Source of the DNA: Planctomycetaceae bacterium
GTDB taxonomy: Bacteria > Planctomycetota > Planctomycetia > Pirellulales > Thermoguttaceae
NCBI GenBank assembly: GCA_012719125.1
Contig: JAAYAY010000013.1
Location: 1 to 64,000 of the forward strand
DNA length: 64,000 nt
Reading direction: 5' to 3'
A program made the position numbers and the translations under genes. Under the pieces are notes generated by a model. It made no database searches. It had not been told where the DNA came from and saw only the letters and a program-made list of their open reading frames with translations. Positions 8,955-41,851 of the stretch are shown one piece after another. Positions within the stretch are counted from its first letter, which is position 1; the number at the start of each line of letters is the position of its first letter.

Positions 8955-9741
8955 ACTCGTTCATCTGGGAAGAAAAGGTGTCCGATTTCGGGCAATCGTG
9001 ATGATGTGAAAAGGTGGATCCCAGTCGGCCCAAACCACCGCGACCCACAGACGCCGTTGAGCGTGAAAGCCCCATACCACGTGGTACGCACAGACACACC
9101 CGGACAACCTCTGTCCGACAGGTACGCCTCTGTTGCTTCGCTCGCCCCAAAAAGACTCTCTGCATCACGTCGCCATACGCAAAGGATCGCCTGCCCTACC
9201 AACGTGCCCTCGCCTGACTCGGCATCATCCCAGCCAAACGGGGCGGTGGCTCTCCCAAATCCTGATGGAATATAACAGATCGACGCGTCGGACGTAAACA
9301 CCGGCTATGGAAATTACTGCTTCCCTCCCTCTTCGTGCGGTTCCCATCGAGCAGCCGCCCTTCCCTTCGTCAACCGTTTGGAGTAAATTCGCGCAAACCG
9401 ACTCCGGGCGTAGTCTTGTTTCCGTTTTTCCGTGACGAATGCTGCGTGTAAACCATTCACCTCCAACGGGTTGCGGCCGAAACGAACCGAATTGCCGTGG
9501 GCGTGTGGAATCTGGGCTGGGATTTTTCTCCCCCCCTGGTGTGGCACTCACATGGACAGACCAACACAGTTACCTCCCCTATCATGGTGGAACGCCGCAA
9601 TCGCTAGCCGTGGTGTCTCCCGGCACGTTCAGTACCGTTTTTTCTTCTGACTGACAGTTGCCACATCCCTGCCGAAGACGTGAGAGGCAACCGCCAAGCG
9701 AATCGTCCCGCTTCTCCAACACTCTGTCAGAGGTCCAGCCA

Positions 9742-10716
9742 GTGCCAAAAATCAAGCGAATTCTCGTGACCGGCGGTGCCGGCTTTCTGGGTTCCCATCT
9801 CTGCGAACGATTGGTCGAGCGAGGCCACGACGTAATCTGCCTGGACAACTTCTTCACCAGCCAGAAATCAAACGTGGTACATCTTCTCGACTACCCCAAT
9901 TTCGAACTGATCCGCCACGACGTGACTCTGCCGATCTACCTCGAGGTGGACGAAATCTACAATCTGGCATGTCCGGCGGCCCCAGGCCACTACCAATACA
10001 ACCCGATCAAGACCCTCAAGACCTCGATGGCGGGCGCCATCAACGTCCTGGGAATGGCCAAGCGCTGCCGGGCTCGGGTCTTTCAGGCTTCCACCAGTGA
10101 GATTTACGGCGACCCTGAGGTTCACCCCCAACCGGAATCGTATCGCGGCTCCGTCAATCCCATCGGCCCAAGGGCCTGCTACGACGAAGGCAAGCGAGCC
10201 GCCGAATCGTTATTCATGGACTACCACCGCATGAACCGCGTGGATATTCGGATTGTACGGATTTTCAATACGTACGGGCCCCGAATGCATCCTTTCGACG
10301 GACGGGTGATATCGAACTTCATCCGTCAAGCTCTCCAGCGAGAGGACATCACCCTTTTCGGAGACGGCAGCCAGACTCGCTCATTCTGTTATCGGGACGA
10401 TATGGTGGACGGCTTCATTCGCATGATGGAAAACGAAGAGGGCTTTATCGGTCCGGTGAACTTAGGCAATCAAGGCGAGTATACCATTCGCCAACTGGCC
10501 GAAACCGTGCTGGAATTGACCTGCTCGAAGAGCAAGATCGTTTACCGCGACTTGCCGGCCGACGATCCGAAGAGACGACGTCCCGATATCAGCCTAGCCC
10601 GGGAGAAGCTTGGCTGGCAGCCGACGGTTTCCCTTGCCGACGGTTTGGCCAAGACAATCCAGTGGTTCCAGTCCATCGACATCGGCGACTACCGGCCGCC
10701 CACGCCAAGCTACTGA
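9742..10716 (+). CDS. UDP-glucuronate decarboxylase (UDP-xylose synthase), NAD-dependent epimerase/dehydratase family
   Basis: Rossmann '[34 protein letters not shown]' and catalytic 'YDEGKRAAE'. GTG start at 9742 (RBS 'gagg') gives 324 aa; the track ATG at 9658 adds an implausible R-rich 28 aa. Confidence 0.85.
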
Positions 10717-10728
10717 CGGCCGGCTGCT

Positions 10729-12054
10729 TCAGGTCAGCTCCGTGATCCCCGGTCGAGGAAGGGGATAGTTGCCGGTTTCGTCGGGTACTGTCGGCGGCTG
10801 GATGTCGAAACTGGCTTCTTCCGGTGCGGGGCCATATTGCAGGTTGGACTTGTGAGCGTCGTCCCAGGTGGTTGCCTTGCCGGAATAGCAGGCCATCTGG
10901 CCGAGCACGCCGATCATGGTGCTGTTGGCCATATAGCTGCCGCTGTTGATCGGCTTGCCGTCGCGGACCGAATCGATCAGCGCCTTCTGCTCAGCATCGT
11001 AGGGATTGTTGGGCTGGCCCTCGAACTGCCAGTTGGTTTCTCCCTCGAATCGCGGCTTCCTCGGGTCCAGATAGCACACGCCCTTCGTGCCCATGATGAT
11101 GTCGCTCGAGTTGCCGTAGCAGTTCTTCTGCGTGCGGCAGAGGGCGTATAGCCGGGTGCCGCTTTCGTATTCGTAGACGACCGTATGGTGGTCGAACATG
11201 TCGCCGTAGATCTCGCCGAAGGAGGCGGATCGCCCGCCCAGGCCGAAGGCCCATTTGGGCATTTCGCCTTGCATGATCCAGGAGATCCGGTCGACGTTAT
11301 GGACCAGGGATTGGGGCACGTCGTCGCCGGAAAGCCAGCAGAAATGATACCAGTTCCAGAAATGGAACTCGATCTCGCTCAACCCGGTACGCCGGGCTTC
11401 GAGTTGATAGGGACCGCGGAGGAACATCGACTGGGCGGCCACGATGTCGCCGATGGCGCCGTCGTGAATTCGCTTGACCGTTTCCTGCCATCCGGCGTGG
11501 TAGCGGCTTTGCAGCCCGGAAACCAGGCTCAGACCCTTCTGTTCCGCCAACTTGGCGGTTTCCTCCACACGGCGTACGCCCACCGGATCGATGGCGTGGG
11601 GTTTCTCGACAAAGCAGTGCTTGCCGGCCTTGACGGCTGCTTCGGAGTACATGGGATGGAACTTCGACGCGCAGGCGATCAGCACCACGTCGACCGAATC
11701 GATCACCTTTTGATAGCCGTCGAATCCCACGAAGCAATGATCGTCGTCGACGGCCACCTGGTCGCCGAACTGGGTCTTGAGATTCGTGCGGCTGGCTTGC
11801 AGGCGGCTGTCGAAGACGTCGCACATGGCGACGAGTTTGACGTCGGCGCCGGCCTTGAGGGCCTGGGCGGCCGCACCGGAGCAGCGCCCGCCGCAGCCGA
11901 TCATGCCGATCTTGATGCTGCCGTCGCCGGCCGCGTGAGCCGATCGGCCAAGGGTCAGACTGGCGGTACCGGCCAGCGAGGCGGCGACTGCCGATTGTCT
12001 GAGAAAACCGCGACGAGAAATCGTGCCGTTTGTTTTCGCTGGTTGCTGGGTCAT
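10729..12054 (-). CDS. Gfo/Idh/MocA family oxidoreductase with twin-arginine (Tat) signal peptide
   Basis: Tat motif 'SRRGFLRQSAVAASLAGTASLTLGRSAHA'; Rossmann 'KIGMIGCGGRCSGAAAQAL'; 'FVEKPHAIDP'. Start chosen at 'MTQQPAKTNG' (RBS aaagga). Paralog of 14972-16276. Confidence 0.85.
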   Translation of the reverse strand: MTQQPAKTNGTISRRGFLRQSAVAASLAGTASLTLGRSAHAAGDGSIKIGMIGCGGRCSGAAAQALKAGADVKLVAMCDVFDSRLQASRTNLKTQFGDQVAVDDDHCFVGFDGYQKVIDSVDVVLIACASKFHPMYSEAAVKAGKHCFVEKPHAIDPVGVRRVEETAKLAEQKGLSLVSGLQSRYHAGWQETVKRIHDGAIGDIVAAQSMFLRGPYQLEARRTGLSEIEFHFWNWYHFCWLSGDDVPQSLVHNVDRISWIMQGEMPKWAFGLGGRSASFGEIYGDMFDHHTVVYEYESGTRLYALCRTQKNCYGNSSDIIMGTKGVCYLDPRKPRFEGETNWQFEGQPNNPYDAEQKALIDSVRDGKPINSGSYMANSTMIGVLGQMACYSGKATTWDDAHKSNLQYGPAPEEASFDIQPPTVPDETGNYPLPRPGITELT

Positions 12055-13357: not shown

Positions 13358-14149
13358 TTACTTTCTGGGCCCGGGCTCCAACCCGGCGGTCCAGGCACAT
13401 CCGCGGCGGTGCAGTTCCGCGGGACCTTCGGCCGCAAAGGCCGCCGTGTCGTGGCCGAGAACGGAATGGAAGACGCGGCCTTTGCCGTACTGGAGTACGA
13501 AGACCATCGGATAGACCTTGTGGTCGACCTTGGAGACGGCGGTGGCCAGCACGGTGATGGGAGTCTCGCCTTCCAGGCAGGAGTAGAGTTCGTCGACCGT
13601 GGTGAAATCTTCCATTCCCTTCACGATCGGATGGTCGACCTTGGCGGTGTTCACGGTGAACTCGCCGTGAGGGTCATGGCCCCGCCTGCCGGGAGGCGTC
13701 TTCGCGCCGAACCACACGCGGCCGGCGAGCCTGGTGAAATCGTCCTTGAATTCCTCGAACGCCCCGCAACCGAAGTGGAGGATCGTCAACCCGCCGCCTT
13801 GTTCGACGAACCCGGCCAGGTTGTCGAATCCCTTCCTGCCGGGCACCTCGGGATCGTAGTTTTTGAAGTGCAGGACGGCTGCGTCGTAGTCGGAAAGCCG
13901 AACCGTGGCCAGCGATTTCAGGTCGGTTAGGACGTCGACCGTCAGTCGGGGATCCTTTTCGAGTTCGGCCTTGACGACCGGATAGGTTTCCTTCCATTTA
14001 TGGCCCGGATAGTCTTCGCCGGTGATGAGGAGGATGCGTGCGCTCTCCTTTGCAGCCTCTCCGGCAGATGACTGGGCGGCAGGGAGAGCTACCAGGGCAC
14101 AGAAGCCCAGCATGAACAAGGCGGTTGTTACGCATCGATTCGCAGCCAT
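13358..14149 (-). CDS. ThuA-like (trehalose-utilisation ThuA / GATase1-like) domain protein, secreted
   Basis: Signal peptide 'TALFMLGFCALVALPAAQSSA'; ThuA-like core 'ILLITGEDYPGHKW...LHFKNYD...GGGLTILHFGCGAF...HPIVKGMEDF...VLGHD'. Confidence 0.8.
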   Translation of the reverse strand: MAANRCVTTALFMLGFCALVALPAAQSSAGEAAKESARILLITGEDYPGHKWKETYPVVKAELEKDPRLTVDVLTDLKSLATVRLSDYDAAVLHFKNYDPEVPGRKGFDNLAGFVEQGGGLTILHFGCGAFEEFKDDFTRLAGRVWFGAKTPPGRRGHDPHGEFTVNTAKVDHPIVKGMEDFTTVDELYSCLEGETPITVLATAVSKVDHKVYPMVFVLQYGKGRVFHSVLGHDTAAFAAEGPAELHRRGCAWTAGLEPGPRK

Positions 14150-14153
14150 GATG

Positions 14154-14765
14154 TCACCTGTTGCCTGGTTGTGGACAAGTTTGCCCCTGAAGGATGCTCA
14201 TAAGACCTCCGACGATCGTTCGTTGTTCTGCCGGGCAGGCGATGTGCGGCTCGTAGACGGCCCGCAGTTTGACTCCTTCGATGGCTGCCAGCATCAAGTC
14301 GACGGCAGCACGCGGATCGTCGACATGGGCCTGGCCGGCAGCCTTGGCGGCCGCGAGCAGCCCAATGTACAGTTCGCGCACCGAGTCGTAGAACTGCAAC
14401 CAGCCGGAGCGGACCTGTTCGTCCTTGAGCGAAAGGGCGAAGATCTCGGTGGTGAAGACTCGCGTGCTCTGATCGACGACGCAAGTCCGCACCGACATCT
14501 CGACGATGGCACGCAAACGCTGCAAGGGATCTCTCAAGCCCGCAATCGCGCGGTGCGCATTCTGTTGGTAAGCTCGATAGTAGTGCTGGCATGCGGCCAG
14601 CACAATCTCTCGCTTCGACTTGTAGTGGCTGTAGAAACTGCCCTTGGTCACACCCGCCCTGGCGGCGATCTCGTCGATCGTCACGGCATCGAATCCGTTC
14701 CGCCCGAACAGCGCGAAGGCGTTTTCGGCCAGGACGGCGGGCATTTGGGGCGCCAGACGGGGCAT
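14154..14765 (-). CDS. TetR/AcrR family transcriptional regulator
   Basis: N-terminal HTH 'FGRNGFDAVTIDEIAARAGVTKGSFYSHYKSKREIV'. It lies 5 bp upstream of the ThuA-like gene on the same strand. Confidence 0.85.
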   Translation of the reverse strand: MPRLAPQMPAVLAENAFALFGRNGFDAVTIDEIAARAGVTKGSFYSHYKSKREIVLAACQHYYRAYQQNAHRAIAGLRDPLQRLRAIVEMSVRTCVVDQSTRVFTTEIFALSLKDEQVRSGWLQFYDSVRELYIGLLAAAKAAGQAHVDDPRAAVDLMLAAIEGVKLRAVYEPHIACPAEQRTIVGGLMSILQGQTCPQPGNR

Positions 14766-14971: not shown

Positions 14972-16276
14972 ATGGCAAACACGCATCGCATTCCATCGCG
15001 TCGGGACTTTTTGAAGGCGTCGGCCACGGCCGGAGTGGCCGCCTGCGGCCTGTCGGTCGTCCGTGGGGCCCATGCAGCCGGGAACGAATCGATCAAGGTC
15101 GGGATGATCGGCTGCGGCGGGCGGTGCAGCGGGGCGGGCGCCCAGGCCCTGAGTGCCGGCCCGGATGTGAAGTTGGCCGCCATGACCGACGTTTTCGAGA
15201 ACCGCATGCGGGCCAAGCAGCAGTACTTCAAGACGAAGTACCCCGACCAGTTCGTCGCCAAGGACGACGCTTGCGTGTTCGGTTTGGACGGGTACAAGCG
15301 GGTGATCGAGGAATCGGACGCGGTGCTCATTGCCTGCGCGTCGAAGTTTCATGCCTACTATGCCGAGAAGGCAATCGAGGCCGGCAAGCACGTGTTTATT
15401 GAAAAGCCCCACGCCATCGATCCGGGCGGCTGCCGGCGGCTGAAGCGGGTTGCCAGGATGGCTGCAGAGAAGGGGCTCTCCTTCGTGTCGGGCCACGAGA
15501 GCCGCTACAGTTTCCCGTACCAGGAACAGGTCAAACGGATTCACGACGGGGCGATCGGCGACGTGGTGGCGATCCAGTCGATGTTTCTTCGCGCGCCCTA
15601 TCGCGTGGTCGCCCGCGATCCGAAGCTGAGCGAGACGGAGTACCAGTTCTCCAATTTCTACCACTTCCGCTGGCTGTCGGGCGACGACGTGCCGCAGTCC
15701 TTGGTACACAACCTGGATCGCATGCGGTGGGTGCTCCACGAGGAGAATCCCACCTGGTGCTTCGGGCTCGGCGGCCGCTCGAGTTCCTTTGGCGAGGTGT
15801 TCGGCGACATGTTCGACCACGGCACGGTGGTTTACGAAATGCCCAGCGGGGTCCGCGTCTACGCCATGTGCCAGACGCAGGCCGGCTGTTATCCCAATTG
15901 GGACGACATCATCATGGGCACCAAGGGGACCTGCCACTGGACGGCCTGCAAGATCGAGGGCGAAACGAGTTGGCGGTACGAAGGTCCGAAGAACGATCCG
16001 CACACCGAAGAGCAGAAGATCCTCATCGGGTCGATCCGCGCCGGCCAGCCCGTCAATCACCAGGACACGATGATCGACAGCACCTACATGGGCGTGATGG
16101 GGCAGATTGCCGTCTACACGGGCAAACAGGTCACGTGGGACCAGGTGCAGGCCGCCGACTTCGAGTTCGGTCCCAAAGTGGATGAAGTCACGCTCGACAT
16201 GGCCCCGCCGACTGTGCCGGACGAGACGGGCAATTACCCGCTGCCGTTGCCGGGGATCACGAGCTTTGAGCTGTGA
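14972..16276 (+). CDS. Gfo/Idh/MocA family oxidoreductase with Tat signal peptide (paralog of 10729-12054)
   Basis: RBS 'aggag' 7 nt upstream of ATG 14972; Tat 'SRRDFLKASATAGVAACGLSVVRGAHA'; 'KVGMIGCGGRCSGAGAQAL'; C-terminus 'PDETGNYPLPLPGITSFEL' parallels the paralog. Confidence 0.85.
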   Translation: MANTHRIPSRRDFLKASATAGVAACGLSVVRGAHAAGNESIKVGMIGCGGRCSGAGAQALSAGPDVKLAAMTDVFENRMRAKQQYFKTKYPDQFVAKDDACVFGLDGYKRVIEESDAVLIACASKFHAYYAEKAIEAGKHVFIEKPHAIDPGGCRRLKRVARMAAEKGLSFVSGHESRYSFPYQEQVKRIHDGAIGDVVAIQSMFLRAPYRVVARDPKLSETEYQFSNFYHFRWLSGDDVPQSLVHNLDRMRWVLHEENPTWCFGLGGRSSSFGEVFGDMFDHGTVVYEMPSGVRVYAMCQTQAGCYPNWDDIIMGTKGTCHWTACKIEGETSWRYEGPKNDPHTEEQKILIGSIRAGQPVNHQDTMIDSTYMGVMGQIAVYTGKQVTWDQVQAADFEFGPKVDEVTLDMAPPTVPDETGNYPLPLPGITSFEL

Positions 16277-16321: not shown

Positions 16322-17356
16322 TCAGAGGATTTCGTCCATGGGGACGCGGCGGCCGGTCTTGACGGACATCTGGGTGGCCAGGCACATGGCGACGGACCAC
16401 TTGCCGTCTTCGCCCGTGCAGGGGGAGGGGGTCCCATCGCGGACGGCGGAAACCATGGCGGCGATCTGCTCCTCCAATTCGTAGAGTTCACCGGCGCCGC
16501 GGGTGACGGGGATCTCTTCGAGTTTTTCGCCGTCAAACGCCTTGAGGAAGAAGGAGGCCTTGCGCACCCGGTCCATGGCGCCGCTCCAACTGGCCCAGAT
16601 GGCGCCTTTCGTACCGGTCAGCTTGACGGTCTGGTGGTGTTCGAAGGCGGCCAGGGTTTGCGAGACGACGGCGTAGGCACCGCCGGTGAAGTGCATGATG
16701 GCGCTGCAGTTGTCCTGCAGTTCCGGATGGTCGGGCTGGCGGGAGTTGGCGGCGGCATAGACCGATTCGGGCTGCCCCACGCTGCTCAGGTACCAGCGGG
16801 CCAGATCGAAGAAGTGGATCGGCTCTTCCAGGATCCAGTCGCCGACACGATTGATGTCGAAACGCCAGCCATCGGAGCCCAGCCGATAGGGGTTTCGCGA
16901 CAGCTCGACCAGCACGTATTGAGGATCGCCCACGACGCCGTCGTCGATCAGTTTCTTCACCGTGCCCCAGAGAGACGAGAGGCGGAACTCGTGGTTGACG
17001 GCGATCCGCAGATTCTTCGCCTTGGCCAGTTGCAGGAGATCGTCGCACTCCTTCATGGTCAGGCACATCGGTTTTTCGAGCAACAGGTGCTTGCCCGAGG
17101 AGAGGACGGCCGAGGCGACTTCGTGGTGCAGGCGATTGGGCACGATGACGTCGACGACGTCGAGGTCGTCGCGCCCGACGAGTTCCCGATAGTCGGCCAC
17201 AACGGCTGCCTCGGGATGGGCCTGTTGGGCGGCGTTCCTGGATTCTTCCGACCGTTCGGCGATAGCGACGAGTTGGGCATCCTCCGCCTTGGCGATCGAG
17301 GCGGCATGGTGCTGTCCCCAGGCGCCGTAGCCGATGAGTCCGAAACGTATGGGCAT
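16322..17356 (-). CDS. Gfo/Idh/MocA family oxidoreductase (cytoplasmic, no signal peptide)
   Basis: 'MPIRFGLIGYGAWGQHHAASIAKAEDAQLVAIAER' Rossmann N-terminus; 'LLEKPMCLTMKECDDL'. Confidence 0.85.
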   Translation of the reverse strand: MPIRFGLIGYGAWGQHHAASIAKAEDAQLVAIAERSEESRNAAQQAHPEAAVVADYRELVGRDDLDVVDVIVPNRLHHEVASAVLSSGKHLLLEKPMCLTMKECDDLLQLAKAKNLRIAVNHEFRLSSLWGTVKKLIDDGVVGDPQYVLVELSRNPYRLGSDGWRFDINRVGDWILEEPIHFFDLARWYLSSVGQPESVYAAANSRQPDHPELQDNCSAIMHFTGGAYAVVSQTLAAFEHHQTVKLTGTKGAIWASWSGAMDRVRKASFFLKAFDGEKLEEIPVTRGAGELYELEEQIAAMVSAVRDGTPSPCTGEDGKWSVAMCLATQMSVKTGRRVPMDEIL

Positions 17357-17597
17357 GGTGTGGTCCTTTCTTCATCAACCGCTATTGGACGCCAATGTCC
17401 AAGATGGTGTCTGTACCGCCCTTTCAGGGCTGCTTTGGTGTTGGATTCGTGCCCCAGGGCGGCGCTTCGCTCTGCCCTGGGCTGATATGTTGCTGCCCCT
17501 GTCGGGGCGACGGACTTTGCAGAGGAAGAGGATCGGCTGTGATCGTGTCTATCCTCGTTTCTGTTTCTCTCCCCTTATCAGCGTCTATCAGCGTTCA

Positions 17598-19136
17598 TCA
17601 GCGGTGCCCTAGACGAACTTCGTCACGCCGGGCACGGCGAGGGGATAGCTCCCGTCGTCGTTGGGCAGGATGGGCGGATTGGCGCCAGGGATTCTCGCCC
17701 TCGATTCGGTTTTTCATCAGGTCGCAGGTGCCTTTGGTGCCGAGGATGATGTCGGACGTCTCGTTGGCGCAGCCGGCCATCCGGCGGCAGTGGGAGTAGA
17801 GCCGCCTTCCGCCGGCGAATTCGTAGGTCACGCAATGGTGGTCGAAGATATGGCCGATGGTGATCTCCGAACGAACCTGGCGGCCGCCGGTGCCCCAGAT
17901 TTTTTCGGGGAGCTGCTGGTTCAGCCAATCGCCGCCGGGGGCCAGGGGGTCCTGGACGTCGGGCTGAACCTTCGATGCGTAGAAGGCCGCCGTTCCACCG
18001 GCAATTCGCAGAACCGCCATATTGATCCCGAGCCGTTTCAACTCCGGCATCACCGTCTTGGGGTGTCGATCCTCGCGCACATGGAGCCAGACTCCACGGA
18101 CCTCCTCGTTCGGCGGTTCCGCATAGACGGCATTTACGTCGACCGTTTGTTCCAGAACGCTGTCGCCCAAGTGCGCACGCACGACGAGTTGGCGCCGGCC
18201 GTTCACCTTGGCCGCTGTCGGTACCTTGATCGAGAAATGCCGGACCGTGGCGCCGGCCATCGTCGCATCGGGTCGGTTCGCGTTCTCCACCTCGATCGTC
18301 GCGCCGTCGCATTCCAGGCGGACCTCCGGCGTGCCGGCACATCCGGCGGCGGCGTGATAGACGGCATCCAGTCCGGCAGCAACGAGGCATTCCGAGGGGG
18401 AAATGCACAGTTGAGGCGTCTTGATGATGGCGGCGATACGTTCTTCCGCCGGTACGTCGGGTCGCAGCCAGGCCAGGAACCCCTTGAGCAGTCTTGCGTC
18501 GTCGCCGCGCGGGGCCGCCGAAGCGCTGCCGCCCGGGATCGCCAAGGCCAGGCCGGTGCTGATCACCTTTCCGCGGCCCAATTGGCCGGCGACGGCCACG
18601 GGTTGGCCGTGTTCGTTTTCGATGAGGATTGCGCCTTTGGGACCGACGCGTTCGACGATGTGATCCTCATAGCTCGACTGGAAGTCCTTCATTCCCTTCA
18701 CAGCCGGATGGTCGGCTCGCACGTGCATCGCGCGACTGCCGTAGACCCGCTGCACCCCCGCGCCGACTTCCGAGAAGATGTGATGGTGCCAGGTTTGGAG
18801 GACGCTTCCACCGGCCTCGACGTAATCGTTGAGACTCTTTCGCCACTGCTTGTGCACGTTGCCCGGATTATGCATGTCGGAGAGATAGACCAGGTCGAAC
18901 ACGCACAACGTGACCGGCTGCAGATCGGCAATGCGCCGGGCATCGTATCCCTGCGATTGCAGCCCTTGCAGCAGGCCGTCGACGGCTGCGCCTTGTCCGC
19001 CCGCGGCCTGCTGGTCGAAAACGGCGATCTTCAGCCTCGTTTCCGCGTCTGCCGAAAACGCGTTCTCTTTGGCCGCAGCAACCAGGCCGACGAATGTCGA
19101 CAACAAGACAGCAAGCACGAATCGGATGGTTCTCAT
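17598..19136 (-). CDS. Secreted ThuA-like domain protein with truncated GHL10 (DUF4015-like) start, chimeric with the oxidoreductase remnant at its 3' end
   Basis: Signal 'MRTIRFVLAVLLSTFVGLVAAA'; ThuA-like/GATase1-like 'LKIAVFDQQAAGG...VFDLVYLSDMHN...GGSVLQTWHHH'. GHL10-like start 'EVRGVWLHVREDRHPKTVMPELKRLGINMAVL', then merges into the Gfo/Idh/MocA-like tail from about 17990 downwards. Confidence 0.6.
   Translation of the reverse strand: MRTIRFVLAVLLSTFVGLVAAAKENAFSADAETRLKIAVFDQQAAGGQGAAVDGLLQGLQSQGYDARRIADLQPVTLCVFDLVYLSDMHNPGNVHKQWRKSLNDYVEAGGSVLQTWHHHIFSEVGAGVQRVYGSRAMHVRADHPAVKGMKDFQSSYEDHIVERVGPKGAILIENEHGQPVAVAGQLGRGKVISTGLALAIPGGSASAAPRGDDARLLKGFLAWLRPDVPAEERIAAIIKTPQLCISPSECLVAAGLDAVYHAAAGCAGTPEVRLECDGATIEVENANRPDATMAGATVRHFSIKVPTAAKVNGRRQLVVRAHLGDSVLEQTVDVNAVYAEPPNEEVRGVWLHVREDRHPKTVMPELKRLGINMAVLRIAGGTAAFYASKVQPDVQDPLAPGGDWLNQQLPEKIWGTGGRQVRSEITIGHIFDHHCVTYEFAGGRRLYSHCRRMAGCANETSDIILGTKGTCDLMKNRIEGENPWRQSAHPAQRRRELSPRRARRDEVRLGHR
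17609..17990 (-). pseudogene. Frameshifted C-terminal remnant of a Tat-type Gfo/Idh/MocA oxidoreductase, read through by the upstream ORF
   Basis: In the 17598-19136 frame: 'WGTGGRQVRSEITIGHIFDHHCVTYEFAGGRRLYSHCRRMAGCANETSDIILGTKGTCDL..RIEGENPW' aligns with the paralog C-termini ('GLGGRSASFGEIYGDMFDHHTVVYE...IIMGTKG...FEGETNW'). The final 'PNDDGSYPLAVPGVTKFV*' lies in a different frame (stop 17609-17611), matching 'PDETGNYPLPRPGITELT*'. Confidence 0.5.
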
Positions 19137-19196
19137 GGGTGACTTTCCTGCTTTGCACGGCGTGGAAGTCCAGCAGCTTTCGTCAACGGTTTGCAG

Positions 19197-20111
19197 TCAA
19201 CCCGGTCTAGCGGCCGCCTTCTTCTGCACGGACAATTGCCATTCCATTCGAATTAGGATGGCCAGCGAAGCGAGGATGATCGCACCTCCGAGCCATTGCA
19301 GAGGCGACATGTTCATTCCCCAGAGGGGCCATTCCACGGCCGCGGTCAGGACGGGACCGGCGAGCATGAACATTCGCAACTTCCAGACGTCCAGGCGCCG
19401 CAGGGCGAAGTAGTACAAGGGGAGCGACAGCGCAACCAGTGCACCGAGGGTGAGGAAGGACAGGGCGGCCATTGGCGAGGCGAACACATCGGTCAGGCGG
19501 GCAAAGTCGCCGCCCACAAGGCCGAGGCCGATGAAGCCCAGCATGCTGCCGGCGTGGTTGTAGAATGCAACGGGCGATTCTTCCATCGTCCGCATGATGT
19601 GGCGGATGATGAAGGCGTTGACGGAGAATCCGAAGGCCGCGCCGACGGTCATGGCGTCGCCGAGAATATGCCCGCCCCAGTCGAACGCGTGAATCTCCAC
19701 GAGGAGAGCGAGCCCGACGGCCATCACCGGAATCAGAGCCAGTTGGCGCAGACCGATGCGTTCCAGCCCCAATGCGGACCCGATGAGGACGACAAAGACG
19801 ACATCGCATCGGATCAGCATGCCGACGTTCGTTGCCGTGGTCCATCGCACGGCGTTGAACCAGAGGAGGTTGATGAAGACGGCGATCAGCGCCATGAGAA
19901 TCAGCCAGCCGCCCTGGCCCCGCGGCCGCAGGCTTCGCCATCCCGCTCCGAATGCGGCGATCCAGAGGAGGAGCAGCGGCAACGACACGGCACGGGAAGA
20001 CGCGCCTACCAGCCCGACGGGCCACCCTTGGATGCTGATCAGCCAGCGCACCATGAGCGTCACGGCGACCCAGGGGACGATGGCGAGTGAGGCGTAGAAG
20101 GCGGTCTTCAT
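19197..20111 (-). CDS. DMT superfamily (EamA-like) transporter
   Basis: About 10 hydrophobic helices across 304 aa, EamA-like duplication; 'MKTAFYASLAIVPWVAVTLMV...'. Confidence 0.75.
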   Translation of the reverse strand: MKTAFYASLAIVPWVAVTLMVRWLISIQGWPVGLVGASSRAVSLPLLLLWIAAFGAGWRSLRPRGQGGWLILMALIAVFINLLWFNAVRWTTATNVGMLIRCDVVFVVLIGSALGLERIGLRQLALIPVMAVGLALLVEIHAFDWGGHILGDAMTVGAAFGFSVNAFIIRHIMRTMEESPVAFYNHAGSMLGFIGLGLVGGDFARLTDVFASPMAALSFLTLGALVALSLPLYYFALRRLDVWKLRMFMLAGPVLTAAVEWPLWGMNMSPLQWLGGAIILASLAILIRMEWQLSVQKKAAARPG

Positions 20112-40376: not shown

Positions 40377-41063
40377 ATGAACTTCTTGTACTCAGCGTCG
40401 GCATCGATGTTCACGGCCTGTTTGGCTTCTTCGTTGCTTCTGGCCGCCGAGCCGAAAACACCAGCGGTCGACATGTTCGGCCCGGAGGCCGCCAAGACGG
40501 TCACTTGGACGGCCTTCAGTGAAGACAAAGCCGCGAAGCAGGACGACGTCTGGCAGATCGGTCCGGAGTTGATCCTCTGCAAGGGTACGCCCCGCGGCTA
40601 TCTGCGAACGGTCGAGGATTTCACCGATTTCACTCTGGAGTTGGACTGGCGCTGGCCCAAAGACCGACCCGGAAAGGGCGGGGTCTTGATCCGGACCACG
40701 GGCGACGACAAGATCTGGCCGAAGAGCCTGGAGGCTCAGATCAATGCGGGCGATGCCGGCGACTTCTGGGGATTGGGCGGCTATCGGCTGGCCGGACCTG
40801 CGGAGCGAATGAAAACGCTCGAAAGCGAGCAGTTCGGAACGCTGACCAATTTGAAGAAGAACGAGTCGTGTGAGCGCGAACCCGGTGAGTGGAACCATTA
40901 TGAGATTGTCGCCCGGGGCGGCGAAGTCACGCTGAAGATCAACGGTCGACTGGTCAACAAGACCACATCCAGCGACGTCGCTGCCGGCAAGATCTGTCTG
41001 ACGTCAGAAGGGAGCGAGATCCATTTCCGCAACGTGAAAATTACCGTGCCGAACAAGCCGTGA
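40377..41063 (+). CDS. DUF1080 (3-keto-disaccharide hydrolase-like, LamG fold) secreted protein
   Basis: Signal 'MNFLYSASASMFTACLASSLLLAA'; 'FTLELDWRW...GGVLIRT', 'NAGDAGDFWGLGG', 'NHYEIVARGGEVTLKINGRLVNK', 'GKICLTSEGSEIHFRNVKI'. Confidence 0.85.
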   Translation: MNFLYSASASMFTACLASSLLLAAEPKTPAVDMFGPEAAKTVTWTAFSEDKAAKQDDVWQIGPELILCKGTPRGYLRTVEDFTDFTLELDWRWPKDRPGKGGVLIRTTGDDKIWPKSLEAQINAGDAGDFWGLGGYRLAGPAERMKTLESEQFGTLTNLKKNESCEREPGEWNHYEIVARGGEVTLKINGRLVNKTTSSDVAAGKICLTSEGSEIHFRNVKITVPNKP

Positions 41064-41158
41064 GCTTTGAGCCATGAACAGTGAGCGTTCGGCAGAGTTG
41101 CGGAATTCTCACTTTGAGCTCAACGCTTCCGTTTCTGAACCCTGTCTTGGAGAGAACC

Positions 41159-41851
41159 ATGCGAAGACGATCGATGTATAGCAGCCTGATTGCCCTGTTG
41201 GTCCTGACGGGCGCACCGCTCTCGGCGGAAGAGAAGTGCGTGGCCGATGTGAAAGAACCCGTCGAACTGTTCAACGGCAAGGACCTGAGCGGGTGGAGTT
41301 GCTTCCTCGTGGATGCAAATGCCAAGATGGAAGACGTCTGGAGCGTCAAGGACGGCATCCTGATCTGCAAGGGCGAGCCCCACGGCTACCTGGCCACGGA
41401 GAACCGGTACGAGAACTTCAAACTGATCGTGGAGTGGCGCTGGGCGCCGGGCAAAGAACCGGGCAACAGCGGTGTGCTGATGCGGATCACGGGCGAAGAG
41501 ATGATGCTGCCCAACTGCGTCGAAGCCCAATTGAAGAGCGGCGACGCCGGTGCCATGTACGGTTTCCAAGGCTTCAAGATCGACGGACCGGCCGAACGCA
41601 AGACGGAAACCAAGGGCCACAAGCTGGGCGGCGACTTGACGGGCCTGAAGAAGCTGGAGGCCGCCGAGAACACGCCTCCCGAGTGGAACCGCTACGAGAT
41701 CACGGCCAGCGGCGACAAGATCGCGGTCAAGGTGAACGGCAAGAAGGTCAATGAAGCGTTCGGCTGTGACGTGCGCTGCGGCAAGATCGCCGTCCAGTCG
41801 GAAGGCGGCGAGATTCACTTCCGCAAGATCTCGCTCCAGCCCGTCAATTGA
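41159..41851 (+). CDS. DUF1080 (3-keto-disaccharide hydrolase-like) secreted protein, tandem paralog
   Basis: RBS ggagag; signal 'MRRRSMYSSLIALLVLTGAPLSA'; 'FKLIVEWRW...SGVLMRI', 'KSGDAGAMYGFQG', 'NRYEITASGDKIAVKVNGKKVNE', 'GKIAVQSEGGEIHFRKISL'. Confidence 0.85.
   Translation: MRRRSMYSSLIALLVLTGAPLSAEEKCVADVKEPVELFNGKDLSGWSCFLVDANAKMEDVWSVKDGILICKGEPHGYLATENRYENFKLIVEWRWAPGKEPGNSGVLMRITGEEMMLPNCVEAQLKSGDAGAMYGFQGFKIDGPAERKTETKGHKLGGDLTGLKKLEAAENTPPEWNRYEITASGDKIAVKVNGKKVNEAFGCDVRCGKIAVQSEGGEIHFRKISLQPVN

Follow-up and report, generated by a model that had tools for sequence, protein, structure and literature searches.

The 64,000-nucleotide stretch analysed here (the window) comprises the start of contig JAAYAY010000013.1 from the assembly GCA_012719125.1 of a Planctomycetaceae bacterium, and our subject is a single open reading frame (ORF) in it that combines parts of two different genes. 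An earlier note, made from the sequence alone, had placed this ORF at 17598-19136 with a length of 512 amino acids, and the list of ORFs agreed, with an ATG start on the minus strand. Its product is identical to a database protein (P0001; NCBI NLS90835.1) annotated as 'hypothetical protein GXX96_01440' from a metagenome-assembled genome of a Planctomycetaceae bacterium, and the strain is a planctomycete of bioreactor metagenomes. Read from the N-terminus, the ORF consists of a signal peptide followed by a ThuA-like and an immunoglobulin (Ig)-like domain, a 61-residue stub of a GHL10 barrel, 80 residues of an oxidoreductase and 27 out-of-frame residues (Table 1).

Scans with the Pfam and NCBIfam models gave no matches to the ORF (Pfam E < 0.1), and the domain assignments were consequently drawn from homologues and structure. 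The signal peptide proposed in the earlier note was agreed by eye only; it appeared to be of the Sec type, no twin-arginine motif could be seen in it by eye, and AlphaFold modelled the region as a lone helix (residues 2-27). The AlphaFold model of residues 1-405, built on a 75-sequence alignment, had a mean predicted local distance difference test score (pLDDT) of 85, with values above 90 over most of residues 40-340, and comprised the signal helix, an alpha/beta domain (~35-225), an all-beta segment (~240-337) and a poorly modelled stub (340-405, pLDDT 36-68). The alpha/beta domain has the three-layer fold of ThuA/GATase1-like proteins, carries the invariant QTWHHH motif of its family and looks intact. 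However, PF06283 (ThuA) did not match the ORF at E < 0.1, whereas the neighbouring gene at 13358-14149 scored 89.7 bits in the same search, and the domain is only 14-19% identical to ThuA-like and GATase1-like proteins (PF06283; PDB 1T0B, 4JQS, 4E5V and 3RHT). Thus the earlier description 'ThuA-like' is right as a statement about fold and wrong as one about Pfam membership. Unlike a stand-alone enzyme, the counterpart in the ORF would be one domain of a larger secreted protein. The all-beta segment was modelled with a pLDDT of ~90, and its best Foldseek matches in the PDB were Ig-like domains (E ~4e-5). Upstream of the ORF lies a region of its own that includes a Shine-Dalgarno-like AGGAAAG. 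When 17200-19400 was scanned against Rfam, the sole match was sub-threshold and at chance level.

The Ig-like domain is followed by the typical beginning of a GHL10 barrel (RGVWLHV...MPELKRLGINMAVLRIAGGTAAFYAS). When residues 1-412 were searched against a collection of 5.8 billion proteins, 101 proteins were returned. More than 80 of these are ~650-700 amino acids long and colinear with the ORF, share the RGVWLHV motif with it at the start of the barrel and run past the sequence GDWL into PF02638 for ~270 more residues, which bore out the GHL10 start recognised earlier, although the retained stretch is 61 residues long rather than the ~45 then estimated. Of the triose-phosphate isomerase (TIM) barrel it spans about two initial beta-strands, helix 1 and the loop as far as GDWL; about 271 barrel residues are gone, so that the complete PF02638 (beta/alpha)8 barrel of ~300 residues, present in the intact homologues, is absent from the ORF. 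The closest intact homologue (P0002, 676 amino acids, 90% identity) is encoded on a contig that we refer to as L001. The same search found no homologue between 100% and 90% identity, and the 90%-identity cluster had one member. In the databases the fused architecture occurs only in the identical sequence itself, and the window protein is the sole 512-residue form without a Pfam domain for which neither a contig end nor a frameshift accounts. Three shorter homologues without Pfam domains (P0008, P0068 and P0019) were considered as independent truncations and rejected, as their sequences look frameshifted or affected by contig problems (long-read or short contigs). Contigs of long-read style (with names such as 'ctg...l'; P0008 lies on one of them, L011) were also seen to carry frameshifted or fragmented members of the family and fragmented LarA-like genes; such copies are probably assembly indel errors and not biology, and would inflate the apparent count of truncated members. 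MAFFT forces the oxidoreductase tail of the ORF onto GHL10 columns, and the resulting alignment would be misleading.

The only characterised GHL10 member is Cwp19 of Clostridioides difficile, a TIM-barrel protein (PDB 5OQ2; PMC5765458, PMC6016235) with the putative active-site residues Arg132, Asp195/196 and Tyr297 (PMC5765458). A profile of the planctomycete family matched Cwp19 over ~300 residues (E 2.9e-8), with positions 346-640 aligned to Cwp19 50-354. The part kept by the window stops near Cwp19 residue ~100 and all positions aligned to the putative active-site residues fall within the deleted part. The ORF differs from GHL10 proteins in having just 61 of the ~330 barrel residues and no Pfam match. 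The planctomycete family itself differs from Cwp19 in its N-terminal ThuA-like and Ig-like extension, while the cell-wall-binding repeats of Cwp19 are missing from it.

Beyond the stub the ORF switches to oxidoreductase sequence. As the earlier note had proposed, this tail is colinear with the C-termini of the neighbouring Gfo/Idh/MocA oxidoreductases that carry twin-arginine translocation (Tat) signals: by BLASTP, residues 404-510 match 259-366 of the protein encoded at 10729-12054 (40% identity, E = 1e-20) and residues 405-485 match 255-335 of that at 14972-16276 (43%, E = 5e-19). In a three-frame translation of 17400-18100 the frame of the ORF loses oxidoreductase similarity after ...IEGENPWR, and the conserved C-terminus resumes in another frame as ...PPILPNDDGSYPLAVPGVTKFV (the neighbour has PPTVPDETGNYPLPRPGITELT), ending at the TAG stop at 17609-17611. 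Translation and tblastn both confirmed this out-of-frame stop, and the conserved segment preceding it is 23-24 residues long, not 18 as first described. However, neither neighbour is the closest relative of the tail. By tblastn, residues 256-340 of a 436-residue Tat Gfo/Idh/MocA protein of L001 (GFO436) matched window 17933-17682 at 94% identity (E 5e-51), and its residues 413-436 matched 17683-17612 at 100% (E 7e-10) in a frame different from that of the first segment, whereas the two intact neighbours in the window are 42-46% identical to GFO436. Because of these identities, set against 40-46% for the neighbours, and because the tail lies at the same syntenic site, it is judged to be the orthologue of this third paralogue and no copy of either neighbour.

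Little of the oxidoreductase is left. No match to the Rossmann NAD(P)-binding domain (PF01408) was found in the ORF, the corresponding ancestral codons 1-260 being deleted, and a complete C-terminal alpha/beta substrate-binding domain is absent, as only codons 261-340 are retained in frame and codons 413-436 out of frame. Compared with the Tat-exported Gfo/Idh/MocA oxidoreductases, to whose C-terminal half both segments are homologous, the remnant thus lacks the Tat signal, the Rossmann domain and codons 1-260 and 341-412. A classic periplasmic example of this family is the glucose-fructose oxidoreductase of Zymomonas. Lacking a Rossmann domain and the greater part of the C-terminal domain, the remnant is predicted to be non-functional. 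The product as a whole retains about two of eight barrel strands and none of the positions aligned to the Cwp19 active site, and of the oxidoreductase it has just 80 C-terminal-domain residues and no Rossmann domain; on strong grounds it can be expected to have neither glycosidase nor oxidoreductase activity. Since the defining domain matches were looked for and not found, the ORF belongs to neither GHL10, ThuA (in the Pfam sense) nor Gfo/Idh/MocA; it descends from the first and the third.

The unfused state was found at syntenic loci of five relatives. L001 is a 17.9-kb contig syntenic with the window (90% amino acid and 89-94% nucleotide identity at the locus), on which the genes are ordered AP_endonuc_2, TAL_FSA, Aldedh, orf99, GD_AH, orf211, EamA, DUF4838 (733 amino acids), the GHL10 protein (676), a LarA-like protein (421), GFO436 (436), a 3-keto-disaccharide hydrolase (271), a Gfo/Idh/MocA protein (344) and, on the opposite strand, another Gfo/Idh/MocA protein (432); the Pfam assignments of those genes missing from the window were checked a second time. 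In both L001 and L007 (~75% amino acid identity) the GHL10 gene (675-676 codons) stands apart from the 436-codon Tat Gfo/Idh/MocA gene, and both genes are intact. Aldedh, GD_AH, EamA, DUF4838 and an intact GHL10 gene occur in a shared order in L007 (75%), L008 (70%) and L009 (75%), and L011 (73%) shares the order from GD_AH on, with its GHL10 gene called as a 507-residue frameshifted ORF, which was left out of the count of intact copies. Further downstream, the LarA-like, GFO436 and 3-keto-disaccharide hydrolase genes are intact in L007 and fragmented or cut by the contig end in L008 and L009, and the contig encoding the homologue P0003 stops directly after the GHL10 gene, so gives no downstream context. 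No relative was found with a single intact ORF and a conserved C-terminus. As the gene order is kept in L007, L008, L009 and L011, at 70-75% amino acid identity, the separate genes are the ancestral state and the window state is derived by loss.

The extent of this loss was resolved by blastn of L001 against the window followed by base-level comparison. The two are colinear in blocks of 79-97% nucleotide identity, between which the window has five gaps (a to e, Table 1). From the stop of Aldedh to the start of the 344-residue oxidoreductase gene the distance is ~11.5 kb in L001 and ~2.85 kb in the window, where EamA is the sole survivor, six genes of that interval having been lost and another two truncated and fused. 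Gap c, of 2914 bp, took the last 271 GHL10 codons, the entire LarA-like gene and the first 260 oxidoreductase codons (L001 breakpoints 10843/13758). The loss of a whole LarA-like gene between the two fusion partners is thus an addition to the earlier account. At the resulting junction 1 (window 17921/17922) the third position of GHL10 codon 405 is joined in frame to the first position of GFO436 codon 261, and the two sides share only the 2-nucleotide microhomology TG. Gap d, of 218 bp (L001 breakpoints 13997/14216), joined the third position of codon 340 to the third position of codon 413, so that codons 341-412 and two further nucleotides are gone and the frame is shifted; its edges in L001 form an imperfect direct repeat, CCTGGCGC / CCTGGGACGC. 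Alignments of L006-L009 and L011 to the window break at identical bases (17922/17921 and ~17683), and the second gap also measures 218 bp against L007 and 217 bp against L008.

Table 1. Features of the chimeric ORF and its surroundings, and the five gaps of the window relative to L001. Positions refer to the window unless marked L001.
Feature	Position	Strand	Basis
Chimeric ORF, 512 amino acids	17598..19136	(-)	ORF list, exact database match (P0001)
Sec-type signal peptide, residues 1 to ~27	19056..19136	(-)	inspection: MRTIRFVLAVLLSTFVGLVAAAKEN
ThuA-like / class-I glutamine-amidotransferase-like alpha/beta domain, residues ~35-225	18462..19034	(-)	fold
Ig-like beta-sandwich domain, residues ~240-337, intact	18126..18419	(-)	AlphaFold and Foldseek
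GHL10 (PF02638) TIM-barrel stub, residues 345-405 (E345-L405)	17922..18104	(-)	homologues continue into PF02638
Junction 1, 2914-bp deletion	17921..17923	(-)	blastn and base-level comparison
Oxidoreductase remnant A, ancestral codons 261-340, ORF residues 406-485, in frame	17682..17921	(-)	tblastn
Junction 2, 218-bp deletion	17681..17682	(-)	base-level comparison
Oxidoreductase remnant B, ancestral last 23-24 codons (…NPPILPNDDGSYPLAVPGVTKFV) and TAG	17609..17681	(-)	frame-0 translation, tblastn
Read-through tail, residues 486-512 (QSAHPAQRRRELSPRRARRDEVRLGHR) and stop, no homologue	17598..17681	(-)	translation
205-bp spacer in place of 3-keto-disaccharide hydrolase gene	17372..17576	(-)	blastn
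Gap a: orf99, GD_AH and orf211 lost	L001 3927-6418		blastn
Gap b: DUF4838 lost	L001 7314-9617		blastn
Gap c: GHL10 3' part, LarA-like and GFO436 5' part lost	L001 10844-13757		blastn
Gap d: GFO436 internal part lost	L001 13998-14215		blastn
Gap e: 3-keto-disaccharide hydrolase lost	L001 14321-15400		blastn

A locus with several Gfo/Idh/MocA paralogues could in principle confuse an assembler, and the long-read homologues P0008 and P0068 show obvious frameshift artefacts, so a false junction in a chimeric contig, a binning error or a collapse across paralogue repeats had to be considered. Against this, four loci in independent assemblies (ENA ERZ27268613, contig 'k141_'; ENA ERZ764778, 'NODE_'; JGI 3300009652 and 3300009647) proved to match the window at 100% identity over 10.5-13.5 kb with both junctions included, and an index of the assembly collection lists the exact protein in 48 blocks. 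The paralogues in the window share only 40-46% amino acid and 63-68% DNA identity, a divergence too great for the assembler to collapse them, and the sides of junction 1 have only two nucleotides in common. We therefore regard an artefact as very improbable. Further copies were not obtained from two other collections: a degenerate pattern of the junction had no matches in genome_contigs or metagenome_contigs, nor did the exact 33-nucleotide left flank in metagenome_contigs, these collections evidently being without the strain, and in a scan of genome_contigs guided by the protein, relatives of 55-58% identity were all that turned up, with no intermediate state.

The age of the fusion was assessed from the ratio of non-synonymous to synonymous substitution (dN/dS), estimated by the Nei-Gojobori method against L001. 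The N-terminal 405 codons gave a dN/dS of 0.16 (dS 0.33) and the 80-codon oxidoreductase remnant 0.07 (dS 0.24), with 0.04-0.08 (dS 0.14-0.33) for intact neighbours. The remnant has three amino acid changes in its 80 codons (Poisson upper 95% bound 8.8), and there are no internal stops in either retained segment. Because a remnant predicted to be non-functional still shows a dN/dS of 0.07, almost all of the divergence would predate the deletion, which thus appears to be recent when set against the divergence from L001. It follows from this recency that the low value of the N-terminal part is uninformative about whether that part has been retained for a function. Counted with five outgroups, amino acid replacements numbered 17 on the window branch and 10 on the L001 branch (p = 0.25), and were mostly conservative. 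Together with the dN/dS values this suits a very recent event and does not amount to a demonstration of relaxed selection.

Deletion-generated fusion pseudogenes and chimeric ORFs are a general phenomenon of bacterial gene decay, and the ORF resembles the known cases in that co-oriented genes were joined, the microhomology is short, a secondary deletion shifted the frame and neighbouring genes of the pathway were lost. Nothing material differs; slightly unusual is the in-frame first junction, owing to which annotation pipelines call one clean 512-residue protein. Consistent with a deletion-derived remnant, the ORF is truncated relative to syntenic intact orthologues and the ancestral coding frame is disrupted. 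Our preferred interpretation, to which we assign a probability of about 85%, is of a gene remnant, recent and non-functional, that illegitimate deletion at the level of microhomology produced. The ancestor had a sugar-utilisation cluster running from the aldehyde dehydrogenase gene (Aldedh) through a galactarate/altronate-dehydratase-like gene (GD_AH), the EamA transporter gene, DUF4838 and the GHL10, LarA-like, GFO436 and hydrolase genes to a further oxidoreductase gene. The 2914-bp deletion joined the GHL10 and oxidoreductase genes, with the in-frame outcome arising by chance, probably as a one-in-three accident, and the 218-bp deletion in the oxidoreductase remnant shifted the frame and added 27 junk codons up to a new stop. 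Three more blocks, comprising the dehydratase block, DUF4838 and the 3-keto-disaccharide hydrolase, were lost besides. These deletions probably go back to slippage during replication or to illegitimate recombination at very short homologies, and the module as a whole was probably dispensable, so that after the first inactivating hit the later losses would have been neutral. On this evidence the deletion scar and pseudogenised oxidoreductase tail of the earlier note hold good, through the unfused L001 and L007 loci and the mapped breakpoints. Of the 'recent paralogue turnover' that it saw here, the recency stands and 'module loss' is the better name, the fusion being one of five losses in an ancestral cluster.

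Several points weigh against this interpretation. All known copies are clonal and identical, and so provide no population-level signal of decay and no intermediate, and leave the five deletions unordered. The microhomologies come from a relative that is 89-94% identical and not from the true ancestor. The first fusion is in frame, the first 340 residues, with the signal peptide and both the ThuA-like and the Ig-like domain, appear fully intact and are confidently modelled, the replacements on the window branch are not significantly above those on the L001 branch, and there is no proof that the truncated product is unmade or useless. An alternative is that the gene lost a domain and kept a function, encoding a useful secreted ThuA-like and Ig-like protein in which the stub and the oxidoreductase fragment form a tolerated, disordered tail. 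The lesion-free N-terminal part, a dN/dS far under 1, the lack of significant acceleration on the window branch, the ORF's own Shine-Dalgarno-like sequence and a strain abundant enough to be assembled from many samples all favour this idea. However, a low dN/dS is equally expected after a recent deletion, and the oxidoreductase remnant, predicted to be dead, has a lower value still. In all cleanly assembled full-length homologues the N-terminal module is joined to a complete GHL10 barrel; the concurrent deletion of DUF4838, LarA-like, GFO436 and the 3-keto-disaccharide hydrolase argues for an abandoned pathway; and an unfolded tail of 170 residues (of low pLDDT where it was modelled) would favour degradation. 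Retained function is on balance unlikely. A more specific proposal, that the ThuA-like and Ig-like domains were kept as a new stand-alone protein, for example for binding or scaffolding, while the GHL10 barrel and the pathway were dropped, seems to us rather unlikely too.

Recombination was the other route that the earlier note had offered beside deletion, and colinearity with both neighbours would fit a tail copied by gene conversion from 10729-12054 or 14972-16276. The tail is, however, 94% (80 residues) and 100% (24 residues) identical to GFO436 and 40-43% to the neighbours, and it occupies the exact GFO436 site of the relatives, which refutes this part of the proposal and leaves it with next to no probability. 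A deletion mediated by an insertion sequence (IS) was also considered and rejected, as the window contains no trace of an ISKra4-family transposase and the junction is clean, with no IS scar. The idea had come from a relative that carries an ISKra4-family IS ~50 bp from the site equivalent to the deletion junction. In that relative (L010, on a contig shared with L012; GCA_040768665.1 JAXGMN010000029.1, Thermoguttaceae AnMBR.bin233) an insert of ~1.68 kb at 9140-10821 splits the homologous GHL10-family gene into ORFs of 391 and 310 residues. The insert has 22-nucleotide imperfect terminal inverted repeats and a 507-residue ORF that matches no Pfam model and scores as an ISKra4-family transposase in NCBIfam (E 1.3e-81).

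Some further observations were made around the locus. A tblastn search with the L001 proteins found no second copies of the lost genes within the window, and at 40602-41845 (+) it detected two paralogues, side by side, that are distantly related (23-26% identity) to the lost 3-keto-disaccharide hydrolase; the window thus still has other members of this hydrolase 'toolkit' family. The surviving EamA gene (19197-20111, minus strand) is only 79% identical to that of L001 in both nucleotides and amino acids (dS 0.76), compared with flanks of 92-97% nucleotide identity (dS 0.14-0.33), suggesting that in one of the two, the window or L001, the allele was replaced from a more distantly related lineage by recombination. 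The 205-bp spacer was unmatched by blastn in L001 and in L006-L011. In its place the relatives have the 3-keto-disaccharide hydrolase gene, accompanied in L007 and L008 by a PDDEXK_3 gene. The spacer contains a GC-rich, hairpin-like palindrome (CCCAGGGC...GCCCTGGG), for which Rfam gave only a sub-threshold match (gyrA RNA, E 0.72). Just past the ancestral oxidoreductase stop, at 17577-17602 (minus strand), lies a triple 10-bp tandem motif (GCTGATGAAC GCTGATAGAC GCTGAT). In L001 this motif and its reverse complement (14295-14320 and 15363-15385) flank the 3-keto-disaccharide hydrolase gene, and similar copies are found on either side of that gene in L007; the motif may serve in recombination or regulation.

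The ancestral cluster is a conserved one in Planctomycetota (L001 7415-15179, L007 7764-16109, with equivalents in L008, L009 and L011). It comprises DUF4838, the secreted ThuA-like, Ig-like and GHL10 protein, the LarA-like protein, the Tat Gfo/Idh/MocA oxidoreductase and the 3-keto-disaccharide hydrolase, with GD_AH and EamA upstream, and may represent an unstudied route of oxidative glycan breakdown or utilisation. No Pfam model covers the N-terminal ThuA-like and Ig-like pair of the intact family.

These results indicate that the ORF is a real case of ordinary gene decay, a textbook fusion remnant and no new kind of protein, and the current understanding of these enzyme families is unaltered. 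The annotation of NLS90835.1 needs a flag as a chimeric remnant of two genes, which would prevent false inferences of domain fusion, Rosetta-stone links of GHL10 to Gfo/Idh/MocA among them. The locus also provides an unusually clean example of module loss, with base-resolved breakpoints, in which five deletions stripped a conserved sugar-utilisation cluster of ~8.6 kb, with six whole genes, in a clonal planctomycete present in many metagenome assemblies. The ThuA-like, Ig-like and GHL10 family is a related lead beside the idea that its N-terminal domains were kept as a stand-alone protein, and the intact ancestral family, together with its conserved cluster, is uncharacterised and may deserve a study of its own.

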